Origin: Escherichia coli
Lineage (GTDB): Bacteria; Pseudomonadota; Gammaproteobacteria; Enterobacterales; Enterobacteriaceae
Strand: one strand, 5' to 3'
Assembly (NCBI RefSeq): GCF_041248615.1
Contig: NZ_CP158426.1
DNA: 64,000 bases
The translations under genes were made by a program, and so were the position numbers. Below are positions 7,897 through 10,506 of the stretch, piece by piece. A model generated the notes under the pieces. It saw nothing but the letters and a program-made list of their open reading frames with translations. It searched no databases and was not told the origin of the DNA. Every line of letters starts with the position of its first letter. Position 1 is the first letter of the stretch.

Positions 7897-8319
7897 TCAC
7901 CGGTTCTGGTACAGAAGCTGCAGTTGGCGCAGGGTACGGATATCCTCCCTGGCCTGTTCAATACAGGGCAACAGTGCTGCCGAATCCGTTTTGTCCTCAT
8001 CGTTGTCAAAGATAATTTCCGATTCGCAGTCAATATTGTCCTGCAGCCACGCAATGAGGATATCCAGCGCTGTTTCAGTGGTTAATGGCATCACGCTCTG
8101 TATCACTGTATTGTCTTCCGGCAACTGATGAGGGCTGGCAGAAGTCGCCGGTGTTTCGGTAGCGTCATGTTCATCCACCACGCGGAGTGAATAACCGTTT
8201 TCAGCGACTTTGTTAATCAGTTCAGCGAGCTTAATACCATCGACGTCAACGACAATGCGCCCCATGTTCAGCGCCTGCGCATTAATGCTGTCGGCTTCCA
8301 ACGTCAGGGCCAGTTTCAT
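7897..8319 (-). CDS. YeeW-like protein
   Basis: 140-aa ORF whose start overlaps the cbtA stop by 4 bp (ATGA), the position YeeW-type genes occupy after cbtA/yeeV. Confidence 0.6.
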   Translation of the reverse strand: MKLALTLEADSINAQALNMGRIVVDVDGIKLAELINKVAENGYSLRVVDEHDATETPATSASPHQLPEDNTVIQSVMPLTTETALDILIAWLQDNIDCESEIIFDNDEDKTDSAALLPCIEQAREDIRTLRQLQLLYQNR

Positions 8320-8693
8320 TGTTTCGCCCCCGGATGTTTACCCAGGGTAATGTTATTTACCGTTCTGTAGTTGTCGCGTGTCATCAGGCCGGTTGCCCGG
8401 CGTGCCCGGAGGATATCAATACTGTTTATTAACTGAGAACGGGTACAGGCGCTGAATCCCGGCTGGTCGGTACGTACCAGCGCGTATTTTTCAACGAGAA
8501 AGTTCACCGCATCACACAGTGAAATGCCCGCTTCAATATGCTGCTCAATCACACGTTCATCAGCGAACGGTGTGTCATTCAGCGCGAGGCCGTAGTGCTG
8601 GTCCAGTAACCGGGTGAGCAGTGTCTGCCAGATGGTGACGGGAGACGGGCAGCACGATGCCTCCCGTACATGCGTGTCGGGTAATGTTTTCAT
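8316..8693 (-). CDS. cbtA: CbtA/YeeV-family toxin (type IV toxin-antitoxin; cytoskeleton-targeting)
   Basis: From the internal Met the translation MKTLPDTHVREA... matches YeeV/CbtA (~125 aa). The 172-aa track ORF is an upstream in-frame extension. Confidence 0.8.
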   Translation of the reverse strand: MKTLPDTHVREASCCPSPVTIWQTLLTRLLDQHYGLALNDTPFADERVIEQHIEAGISLCDAVNFLVEKYALVRTDQPGFSACTRSQLINSIDILRARRATGLMTRDNYRTVNNITLGKHPGAKQ

Positions 8694-8782
8694 AATGAAG
8701 ATTTTCCTGATATGCAGAGATAAAAAATGGGACAGTGGCGTGGTGAAAGCACCAGGCCGGAGCAGAAGGTTATTCTGGAGAG

Positions 8783-9151
8783 TTACTTTTTCGTTTCGGG
8801 CGTCGGATAAACAGCCATATAAACGTAGCCACAACTGCCGAGGGTGTCGGCTTCGCAGGTCAGCCCTTTTGCATACAGCGTGACGGTATGCTGATGGCGG
8901 GGATTCAGTTCACCGCTGGTGAGCATGAGTTCCAGTTGTTTCATCAGCAGCGGAAAGGCCTGGTCCAGGTGGTACGAATCCGCGTCGCTGAACCGCCCTC
9001 TAATACAGGCGCGGTCGGCAAGGTAATGCAACCGGTTGCCTTCCTGTACCAGACGGGCACCAAAACAGGGCGTCACGGTGCAGGGCAGTCCCCACCAGGT
9101 GCGGTCGTTATTGTCGTCGGGAAGCGTTGTCCCGGGGAGTGTGTCTGACAC
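8783..9151 (-). CDS. cbeA: CbeA/YeeU-family antitoxin
   Basis: 122 aa beginning MSDTLPGTTLPDDN..., near-identical to YeeU/CbeA as recalled; ~90 bp upstream of cbtA. Confidence 0.85.
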   Translation of the reverse strand: MSDTLPGTTLPDDNNDRTWWGLPCTVTPCFGARLVQEGNRLHYLADRACIRGRFSDADSYHLDQAFPLLMKQLELMLTSGELNPRHQHTVTLYAKGLTCEADTLGSCGYVYMAVYPTPETKK

Positions 9152-9226
9152 GATAAAATCCTCACAGAAAATCGGTTAAGAATGGTCCGGTAGTGGCGAT
9201 AATTCTGCTCATCAGAATGCCCTGAC

Positions 9227-9448
9227 TCAGTTCAGGGTGACACTCATCAGGCGGACATACGGGCCAAAACTGTCCTTACGGCGTTCTGCAAATACAGCCA
9301 GCACACCGGGAATATCCTGCACTTCACGACCGGTATACGCCTCAGCACTGCCGTGCCAGCGGTATTTACCGGTACAGAACGGAAAAAGACGGGATGCAGG
9401 ATGCTGACGGTGAATACGCATGGCTTCACCACGGGTGATGATTTTCAT
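9227..9448 (-). CDS. DUF987 (YeeT/YkfF-like) protein
   Basis: 73 aa; conserved position between the RadC-like gene and cbeA. Confidence 0.7.
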   Translation of the reverse strand: MKIITRGEAMRIHRQHPASRLFPFCTGKYRWHGSAEAYTGREVQDIPGVLAVFAERRKDSFGPYVRLMSVTLN

Positions 9449-9534
9449 GAGAATAGTCCTCCTGAATGTGAAAGTAAGAAACAGCTGAGAAAGAGAAACT
9501 GAAGTGATATGAAGGTGATTGTGACGGTGACGGG

Positions 9535-10026
9535 TTAAAGCAGACCGTGTTCCGCAAAGGAGAAAACCTGGCTGCCACCGATTATCAGATGGTCCGGTAC
9601 CCGGATATCCACCAGGGCCAGTGCCTGTACCAGACGCTCGGTGATAAGGCGGTCTGCCTTGCTGGGGATGACTTCACCGGACGGGTGATTGTGCGCCAGC
9701 ACCACGGCAGCGGCATTGTGGTACAGGGCGCGTTTAATCACCTCCCGGGGATGGACTTCTGTGCGGTTGATGGTGCCAGTGAAGAGGGTTTCACCGGTAA
9801 TCAGCTGATTCTGGTTATTCAGATACAGCACCCGGAATTCTTCACGCTCCAGTCCCGCCATGTTCAGAATCAGCCATTCCCGTGCCGCATGCGTGGAGGT
9901 GAAGGCCACGCCGGGTTCATGAAGATGGCGGTCCAGGGCTTTCAGGGCCCGCTGAATGAGGCTGCGCTCGCCGGGTGTCATCTCTCCGGGCAGAAAGGAA
10001 AGCTGCTGCATTGTCCCTGCCTCCAT
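9535..10026 (-). CDS. RadC-like JAB-domain protein (YeeS/YkfG/YfjY family)
   Basis: HNHPSG motif and overall match to YeeS; the true start may be the internal Met at 10011. Confidence 0.8.
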   Translation of the reverse strand: MEAGTMQQLSFLPGEMTPGERSLIQRALKALDRHLHEPGVAFTSTHAAREWLILNMAGLEREEFRVLYLNNQNQLITGETLFTGTINRTEVHPREVIKRALYHNAAAVVLAHNHPSGEVIPSKADRLITERLVQALALVDIRVPDHLIIGGSQVFSFAEHGLL

Positions 10027-10506
10027 TCAGTCGATGATGCGCATAATGGCGCTGCATTCCGGATGCTGCAGGGCATAATCCCGCAGCCGGTAATAATGAA
10101 CCGTCATGGCATAATTCTCTGTACGACAGGCGTGATGGCTGTACGCCATCAGACAGGCGGCAATGCCGGCGGCTTCCGGGCTCATTTCAGCGCGGTTACC
10201 GTTCATGACGTTAAACAGCACCCATGTTTCGTCATCATCGTCATCCGGTTCAGGTGCCATAAATGCGCCACCGTTGTTCAGGGTGTACAGATTCCAGATG
10301 CCCCCGCAGTAGTCTTCGCACAGACGGTCCATCCAGCCGAAGACACGGGGCTCCAGGGTCACCCACTGTGGAATGAGGCCAAAATGCTGCGGCCAGAAGC
10401 TGATACGTTGTTCATCAGGGACGGGAGTAGCAACCAGTTGGGGCTGGTTATTCCCTGGTGCTGTGGCTGAAGAAAGAGCAGTTGTGTTCTGAGAAACGAT
10501 TTTCAT
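10027..10506 (-). CDS. Antirestriction protein (KlcA/ArdB-like; YfjX/YafX family)
   Basis: 159 aa with DDDDDETW acidic stretch and match to YfjX; the start codon sits 1 bp from the end of IS copy A. Confidence 0.8.
   Translation of the reverse strand: MKIVSQNTTALSSATAPGNNQPQLVATPVPDEQRISFWPQHFGLIPQWVTLEPRVFGWMDRLCEDYCGGIWNLYTLNNGGAFMAPEPDDDDDETWVLFNVMNGNRAEMSPEAAGIAACLMAYSHHACRTENYAMTVHYYRLRDYALQHPECSAIMRIID

Follow-up and report, generated by a model that had tools for sequence, protein, structure and literature searches.

A CbtA/CbeA-family toxin–antitoxin pair in a conserved gene block at the integrase-distal end of a selC island of Escherichia coli NRZ14408

Genes of the block and integrity of the pair

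Here, we describe a block of genes encoding a CbtA/CbeA-family toxin–antitoxin pair in a 64,000-nucleotide (nt) stretch of Escherichia coli DNA, which we call the window and to which all coordinates refer. An earlier sequence-only reading had described the pair as type IV and placed it in a complete CP4-type terminal module at 7897–10506. Open reading frames (ORFs) were taken from a mechanical list and compared with the RefSeq/PGAP annotation of E. coli NRZ14408 (NZ_LT599825.1), which matches the window at 100%; the window coordinate equals the record coordinate minus 64000. On the minus strand, 7897–10506 carries six consecutive, co-oriented ORFs, each with a very strong Pfam match, and the same genes are independently annotated by RefSeq/PGAP in NRZ14408. 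The ORF list, Pfam and PGAP agree on the order and orientation proposed earlier, namely antirestriction, RadC-like, DUF987, CbeA, CbtA and YeeW-like genes, all on the minus strand. Together with the flanking features, the block reads as follows:

10508–11765, minus strand: ISEc31, an IS3-family insertion sequence (IS) of 1258 bp with TG...CA ends (inverted repeat and PGAP annotation)
10027–10506, minus strand: ArdB/KlcA-type antirestriction gene, 159 amino acids (aa) (Pfam PF03230 Antirestrict, 5e-37)
9535–10011, minus strand: RadC-like JAB/JAMM gene, 158 aa (Pfam PF04002, 5e-44); the mechanical ORF reaches 10026
9227–9448, minus strand: DUF987 gene, YeeT-like, 73 aa, intact (Pfam PF06174, 1.5e-40)
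8783–9151, minus strand: CbeA (YeeU-family) antitoxin gene, 122 aa (Pfam PF06154 CbeA_antitoxin, 1.8e-54)
8694–8782, minus strand: spacer between cbeA and cbtA, 89 nt (alignment with other copies)
8316–8693, minus strand: CbtA (YeeV-family) toxin gene, 125 aa (Pfam PF06755 CbtA_toxin, 3.2e-63)
7897–8319, minus strand: YeeW-like ORF, 140 aa (Pfam PF25638 DUF5983_N, 2.8e-28)
7846–7862, minus strand: terminator-like hairpin and T-run between the 140-aa ORF and the DUF4942 gene (consensus scan)
6970–7812, minus strand: DUF4942 gene, 280 aa (Pfam PF13708, 1.1e-69)
6812–6834: attR-like partial copy of the selC 3′ end (23-nt match to selC)

Toxin and antitoxin are both full length. The 125-aa CbtA aligns end to end with the 124-aa CbtA of K-12 (88.7% identical) and shares 65% and 61% identity with YpjF and YkfI, and CbeA is 91.0% identical to K-12 CbeA over 122 of 122 aa (69% to YfjZ, 66% to YafW); the K-12 proteins used for comparison were translated from NC_000913.3. 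Disruption of either gene, which would have spoken against the pair, was sought in these alignments to the K-12 paralogues and none was found. CbeA has close relatives of solved structure in the PDB (2INW and 2H28, both YeeU, with E about 1e-76; 2JN7 and 2EA9, for YfjZ, with E about 1e-43), and the corresponding search with CbtA returned none, its best match having an E-value of 0.13. The antitoxin gene begins with a GTG codon preceded by GAGGA and lies upstream of the toxin gene, adjacent to it and co-oriented on the minus strand across the 89-nt spacer, which is the gene layout of type IV pairs.

For the toxin, the mechanical list gives a 172-aa ORF at 8316–8834, the 5′ part of which had been suspected to be an artefactual extension of a gene starting at the internal methionine at 8693. 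Both points are borne out by the CbtA Pfam match, which begins only at residue 48 of the long ORF, this being Met 8693, and which spans profile positions 1–112 of 112 from residue 1 of the shorter protein; PGAP gives the same start. The in-frame stretch upstream of 8693 overlaps the end of cbeA, is devoid of a start codon in the K-12 and O157 copies, and has its frame broken by a 1-nt indel in the K-12 copy. The confirmed toxin start is of practical value.

Measured against paralogous copies, ratios of non-synonymous to synonymous substitution rates (dN/dS) are 0.12–0.23 for cbtA and 0.14–0.24 for cbeA in five pairwise comparisons that are not mutually independent, and these low values point to purifying selection on both genes. 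The spacer of 89 nt is a trait of CP4-44-type copies, those of the CP4-6/CP4-57 type having 20 nt, and this difference (88 versus 20 bases) has been noted before (PMC5371832). The predicted RNA fold of this conserved spacer is no better than that of shuffled sequences (z = -0.92).

The pair is thus very likely a further chromosomal CbtA/CbeA system of the CP4-44 type, in a conserved block at the integrase-distal end of an island. The block itself was known before: it is an island module found almost throughout E. coli, and RefSeq annotates it correctly in this genome. Of 5426 complete E. coli genomes, 5104 contain DNA resembling the block (3.8 kb); the median number of such places per genome is 3, against 7 in this one. 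The CbtA/CbeA pair and its neighbors are textbook features of E. coli islands and carry little weight as a discovery.

Island context and neighboring genes

The block forms the integrase-distal end of a selC island of ~50.7 kb in E. coli NRZ14408. At the other end, the tRNA-Sec gene (selC, 57487–57581, minus strand) is adjoined by an integrase of 394 aa (56003–57187) with the domains Arm-DNA-bind_3, Phage_int_M and Phage_integrase, a P4-type set. A 23-nt copy of the selC 3′ end (TGGCGGAGATCACAGGAGTCGAA) at 6812–6834 matches selC at 57487–57510 with one 1-nt indel and lies 135 bp beyond the DUF4942 stop codon. A P4-type integrase beside selC at one end and a selC repeat past DUF4942 at the other agree with the earlier description of the module as CP4-type and terminal. 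The island may resemble AGI-3, a selC island, judging from the names 'aec77/aec78' on homologues.

The claim that the module is complete holds in part. The gene order as proposed is intact; the canonical full block, however, comprises DUF932, DUF905, antirestriction, RadC, DUF987, CbeA, CbtA, DUF5983, DUF957 and DUF4942, and the window lacks the full set. At the upstream end, DUF932 and DUF905 have been lost beside ISEc31, together with the leader and Shine-Dalgarno sequence of the antirestriction gene. At the downstream end, the last canonical gene, DUF4942, falls outside 7897–10506 but is still present and open, at the position that it occupies in SFAD3, 41EC2, 1CC and others. The YeeW-like gene between them is a short fused form, and not the pair of a 162-aa DUF5983 gene and a 65-aa DUF957 gene seen in other copies. 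Apart from DUF932, DUF905 and DUF5983, all canonical genes are present and open in the window by Pfam.

By sequence, the antirestriction gene is a member of the ArdB/KlcA family, with matches to ArdB (PDB 2WJ9, E 1e-98) and KlcA (2KMG, 3e-20) and 69% identity to both K-12 YafX and YfjX/LfgA. The RadC-like protein scores 148 bits against TIGR00608, over its cutoff, contains the JAMM motif HNHPSGEVIPSKAD (HxHx7Sx2D), and is 95% identical to YeeS, 82% to YkfG and 76% to YfjY/LfgB. It most likely starts at 10011 and not at 10026, because GGAGG lies 9 nt upstream, the protein aligns from there with the MKQLSF of YkfG, and PGAP uses the same start. The DUF987 protein is 97% identical to K-12 YeeT. 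Its gene is intact in the window and has an internal stop in CLSC36 (locus L002, 14432–14653) and 97-3250 (locus L003, 5433–5654), whose selC blocks are otherwise near-identical. The DUF4942 protein shows a weak likeness (4e-19) to part of phrog_6263, a PHROG family annotated as DNA methyltransferase. An equivalent of the hairpin at 7846–7862 is found 3′ of the yeeW remnant in K-12, and the hairpin is probably the 3′ end of the operon. Rfam at gathering thresholds gave nothing within the block, PADLOC matched none of the seven block proteins to a defense system, and RadC was the sole NCBIfam match among them.

The ISEc31 copy at 10508–11765 ends 1 nt before the antirestriction start codon, which is preceded by taAGGAtttcactc in CLSC36 and by the IS sequence ccactacac in the window. 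A second copy, inverted and 100% identical over 1258 nt, lies 29.2 kb away at 40982–42239 on the plus strand, beside a GTPase gene, a regulator gene and a truncated hypothetical gene in the opposite orientation. In CLSC36 and 97-3250, DUF932, DUF905, a hypothetical gene, a helix-turn-helix (HTH) regulator and a YeeP-like GTPase precede the antirestriction gene, all co-oriented. Upstream of copy 1 and downstream of copy 2, the flanks have the trinucleotide TAA in common, as would fit a target duplication exchanged when the two copies recombined. These flanks and the comparison with CLSC36 indicate that the 29-kb island segment between the copies has been inverted. Besides selC, the only Rfam hits in the window are two full-model matches to RF01387 'isrC' (150 bits), at 11575–11697 (minus strand) and 41050–41172 (plus strand), both within orfA of the ISEc31 copies. 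BLAST finds no similarity between these matches and the isrC region beside flu in K-12, and RF01387 appears to capture IS3-family sequence and nothing linked to the toxin–antitoxin block.

Three further regions of the window were recorded as observations in their own right. About 635 bp (6177–6811) separate setC from the attR-like repeat and contain what PGAP annotates as an internal rhuM fragment (about 6605–6730); they look like what is left of an element inserted at selC before the present island, beyond whose boundary they lie. Inside the island, a lone ugpB-like gene of 438 aa (13827–15143, in a region spanning 13471–15143) stands without ugpAEC, with a short PemK/MazF-family toxin fragment before it and a frameshifted IS110 transposase after it, and is apparently an odd orphan copy of a core transporter gene. 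Positions 1–4550 (record 64001–68550), beyond setC, yicL, nlpA and yicS, hold genes for the translocon and chaperones of type III secretion (IpaD/SipD-like, YopB/SseC-like and SycD/LcrH-like). In CLSC36, these type III secretion genes adjoin eilA and an inverse autotransporter, and we presume that those at 1–4550 are the eip/eilA cluster associated with ETT2, which they look like.

The YeeW-like gene and the function of the pair

The gene after cbtA encodes a 140-aa protein with a DUF5983_N domain (aa 4–57), a linker of ~20 aa and a DUF957/ANF00264 domain (aa ~76–140), and is 76% identical to K-12 YeeW over aa 5–66. Its ATG overlaps the cbtA stop codon (ATGA), which suggests translational coupling. 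PGAP splits this frame into a 'DUF5983 pseudogene, missing C-terminus' (8143–8319) and a 65-aa DUF957 gene (7897–8094). In SFAD3, O157 and other copies, a 162-aa DUF5983 gene is followed by a separate DUF957 gene (65 aa in SFAD3). When aligned as DNA, the window and K-12 copies are of one and the same short type, missing ~280 bp of the long form; K-12 YeeW (64 aa) is this short type ended by a stop codon.

Several lines of evidence argue that the short fused form is real. Proteins of 140 or 137 aa with the same layout occur in many clusters, one of them with 518 member sequences. The frame length of 423 nt is kept in seven loci at no fewer than four chromosomal sites, and the frame is open in six of the seven. 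Against paralogous copies, dN/dS is 0.10–0.27 for the whole ORF, 0.18–0.38 for the N domain and 0.07–0.16 for the DUF957 part, similar to cbtA and cbeA. Two-domain homologues are found at 45–58% identity, and one of these fused homologues (58% identical) lies in an antirestriction/RadC/DUF987/CbeA/CbtA block, again overlapping the cbtA stop. The gene after cbtA therefore probably encodes a genuine protein of 140 aa rather than being a pseudogene with a fragment beside it. AlphaFold2 models of it have a mean predicted local distance difference test (pLDDT) score of 45 when 25 sequences were aligned and 61 when 50 were; only a C-terminal helical hairpin (about 78–140) is credible, at a pLDDT of about 80, and the N domain is weak.

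Another fusion of this kind (134 aa, 45% identical) was observed directly upstream of a DUF4942 gene in the Logan contig SRR14739086 (locus L014, 1216–2518), adjoined by integrase fragments and with neither cbtA nor cbeA nearby. It suggests that the YeeW-DUF957 and DUF4942 pair can exist apart from the toxin–antitoxin pair.

A June 2026 preprint has made the case for AntiFam entry ANF00264 as a genuine, dimeric domain that occurs beside cbtA/cbeA, in many cases fused to DUF5983. The preprint describes it beside cbtA in three annotation contexts, including a 'C-terminally incomplete DUF5983 plus a separate protein', and the RefSeq annotation of the window locus corresponds to this context. Judging from this shared context, the DUF957-type domain of the window protein would be ANF00264, in which case the transfer of the family to AntiFam would account for the lack of a current Pfam hit in the C-terminal half of the protein. 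Because the window has one uninterrupted frame of 140 codons, the programmed frameshift proposed in the preprint is not needed for this allele. With RefSeq calling a pseudogene and a small gene, and AntiFam listing the C-terminal domain as spurious, there is an annotation point to be made for the gene after cbtA.

What the pair does in NRZ14408 is read from its K-12 counterparts. There, F65S abolishes the interaction of CbtA with FtsZ and R15C that with MreB; each single mutant stays toxic, the double mutant is non-toxic, and Phe65 is required for the FtsZ interaction in CbtA, YkfI and YpjF alike (PMC5624674). K-12 CbeA is reported to bind FtsZ and MreB and stabilize their bundles and not to bind the toxin, which is the basis of the type IV designation (PMC5624674, PMC5371832); the type IV definition and the paralogous pairs are laid out in PMC5371832. 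By analogy with these 89–91% identical proteins, the window CbtA would bind FtsZ (at the H6/H7 loop, in a Phe65-dependent manner) and MreB, thereby blocking division and elongation. CbeA, encoded directly upstream on the same strand, would neutralize CbtA by binding and bundling FtsZ and MreB filaments instead of the toxin. The most plausible role of the pair would be addiction, or stabilization of the island, with the flanking ArdB and RadC-like genes plausibly serving establishment or anti-defense functions. The type IV label for the window pair is transferred from the K-12 experiments, and its toxicity, targets, mode of neutralization and expression in NRZ14408 we infer.

Nothing counts against the identity of the pair, and the points that do weigh against this reading concern function in this strain. 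Beside ISEc31, 1,806 bp of CLSC36 (L002, 15713–17518) are missing from the window, including DUF932, DUF905, part of the hypothetical gene and the antirestriction leader, and with this DNA upstream of the block went the AGGA Shine-Dalgarno sequence of the antirestriction gene. A simple sigma-70 scan of the coding strand at 7800–10600 found no promoter-like site, a result that is uninformative rather than negative given how crude the scan is; expression of the block in NRZ14408 is putative. The window CbtA has Cys15 (codon 8649–8651), the residue that abolishes the MreB interaction when introduced into K-12 CbtA, so dual FtsZ/MreB targeting may not transfer from K-12. That the antitoxin does not bind the toxin stands on K-12 in vitro work known to us through second-hand citation. 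Lastly, CbtA was found in one of 50,697 deposited phage records, itself a 3.2-kb fragment; with CbtA essentially absent from phage genomes, 'prophage' is best regarded as a historical label for such islands.

These points open up other readings of the locus. The ISEc31-mediated deletion and inversion could have left an intact pair transcriptionally orphaned, silent or expressed by read-through from the IS only, and thus a relic instead of a working addiction module. The position of the IS, 1 nt before the antirestriction ATG, the missing leader and AGGA, and the lack of a coding-strand sigma-70-like site inside the block fit such a scenario. Yet the scan was a crude consensus one and the 75–89-nt spacers may hold weak or internal promoters, the genes downstream of the antirestriction gene retain their own Shine-Dalgarno sequences, and IS3-family elements can read outward. 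Moreover, no decay is seen in the ORFs, whose protein products do not differ from those of IS-free strains, and we consider an orphaned relic rather unlikely. Intact genes are nevertheless not the same as an intact operon, as the IS has taken away the upstream region. A decayed or chance origin of the frames themselves, for which one could point to long antisense ORFs such as the 307-aa one at 9547–10470 on the plus strand and to no other support, is refuted by the Pfam matches (E-values of 1e-28 to 1e-63), the K-12 alignments and the evident purifying selection in dN/dS, and is barely conceivable. The antisense ORFs of the block, that one included, have no Pfam match and were treated as spurious.

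The two remaining alternatives keep a functional CbtA and change its partners or its targets. The functional unit may have three parts, with the 140-aa YeeW-like/DUF957 protein, coupled to cbtA, as a working partner of the toxin (a modulator, a second antitoxin or a regulator). The ATGA overlap with cbtA is conserved in K-12, in SFAD3 and at the locus of the 58%-identical YeeW-like protein; the frame conservation, dN/dS values and fused homologues described above point the same way, as do the adjacency of CbtA and DUF5983 in every sequence type but ST11 in a 2023 survey (PMC10790755) and the 2026 preprint, which presents ANF00264 as genuine and cbtA-linked. However, YkfI/YafW and YpjF/YfjZ act as toxin–antitoxin pairs with no such gene downstream (PMC5371832), a stop interrupts the YeeW-like frame at codon 65–67 in K-12 and 41EC2, the 45%-identical homologue adjoins DUF4942 with no cbtA nearby, and the structural model is weak for the N domain. 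It is only tentatively, then, that we propose CbtA/CbeA modules to have a true third component in the 140-aa protein, which could modulate toxin activity or operon expression. Alternatively, the Cys15 allele might be mainly an FtsZ-directed division inhibitor with weak or absent MreB binding, yielding filaments instead of lemon-shaped cells. In two-hybrid assays of K-12 CbtA, R15C specifically removes the interaction with MreB, and the mutant gives filaments (PMC5624674); the window CbtA combines Cys15 with a kept F65 and departs from the K-12 sequence over most of positions 6–16 (DTHVREASCCP versus VLPGQAASSRP). But YpjF has Cys15 and still binds MreB, and C15R is without effect in YpjF or YkfI (PMC5624674), so the effect of residue 15 depends on context and is not predictable for the window allele. 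Arg15 is a trait of the K-12 allele and not family-defining, since YkfI and YpjF also have Cys15. Among CP4-44-type copies, CbtA N-termini fall into two classes, VLPGQAASSRP (R15, K-12 type) and DTHVREAS[C/S/R]CP (C15, window type), the latter in six of the ten copies sampled. An FtsZ-directed window allele appears doubtful to us, and a target balance of FtsZ over MreB for the common Cys15 class as a whole is a secondary possibility. All mechanistic work has been done on the K-12 allele. For the pair itself, we keep to the reading as a further CP4-44-type copy.

Comparison with known systems

The closest known system is CP4-44 of K-12 (YeeV/YeeU), which has the order yeeS (RadC-like), yeeT (DUF987), cbeA, cbtA, yeeW in common with the window, with identities of 95% (YeeS), 97% (YeeT), 91% (CbeA), 89% (CbtA) and 76% (YeeW), a cbeA–cbtA spacer of ~89 nt and the ATGA overlap between cbtA and yeeW. 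Unlike the window, CP4-44 has yeeR upstream in place of the antirestriction gene and lacks both an integrase and DUF4942; its YeeW is stopped at 64 aa and has a deletion within the DUF957 part, and its CbtA is of the R15 (VLPGQAASSRP) and not the C15 (DTHVREASCCP) class. YkfI/YafW of CP4-6 and YpjF/YfjZ of CP4-57 share the antirestriction/RadC/DUF987/antitoxin/toxin order at an island end, and their toxins have C15 and F65 as in the window allele. They differ in sequence (toxins 61–65% and antitoxins 66–69% identical), in their 20-nt spacer, in their shorter proteins (105 and 109–113 aa) and in having no YeeW, DUF957 or DUF4942 downstream.

Outside K-12, the block of the window is also found in CLSC36 and 97-3250, at the same setC-proximal selC site. 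The CbtA, CbeA and RadC-like proteins of CLSC36 are identical to those of the window, as is the DUF957-annotated protein of both strains. In both, DUF932, DUF905 and the genes for the hypothetical protein, the HTH regulator and the GTPase are retained upstream, where the window has the IS-mediated deletion and the indicated 29-kb inversion. In SFAD3, the block lies near cadC and has separate 162-aa DUF5983 and 65-aa DUF957 genes, whereas the window has the fused short form.

Individual genes also have characterized relatives. By sequence, the first gene of the block matches ArdB (2WJ9, E 1e-98)/KlcA. The RadC-like protein is 76% identical to LfgB of the LfgA–LfgB (YfjX–YfjY) pair of CP4-57; LfgB was recently reported to be a protease that cleaves the antitoxin MqsA, a substrate claim that applies to the CP4-57 paralogue only. 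Finally, the C-terminal ~65 aa of the 140-aa ORF are the domain that PGAP calls DUF957, formerly in Pfam under that name and presumably corresponding to ANF00264.

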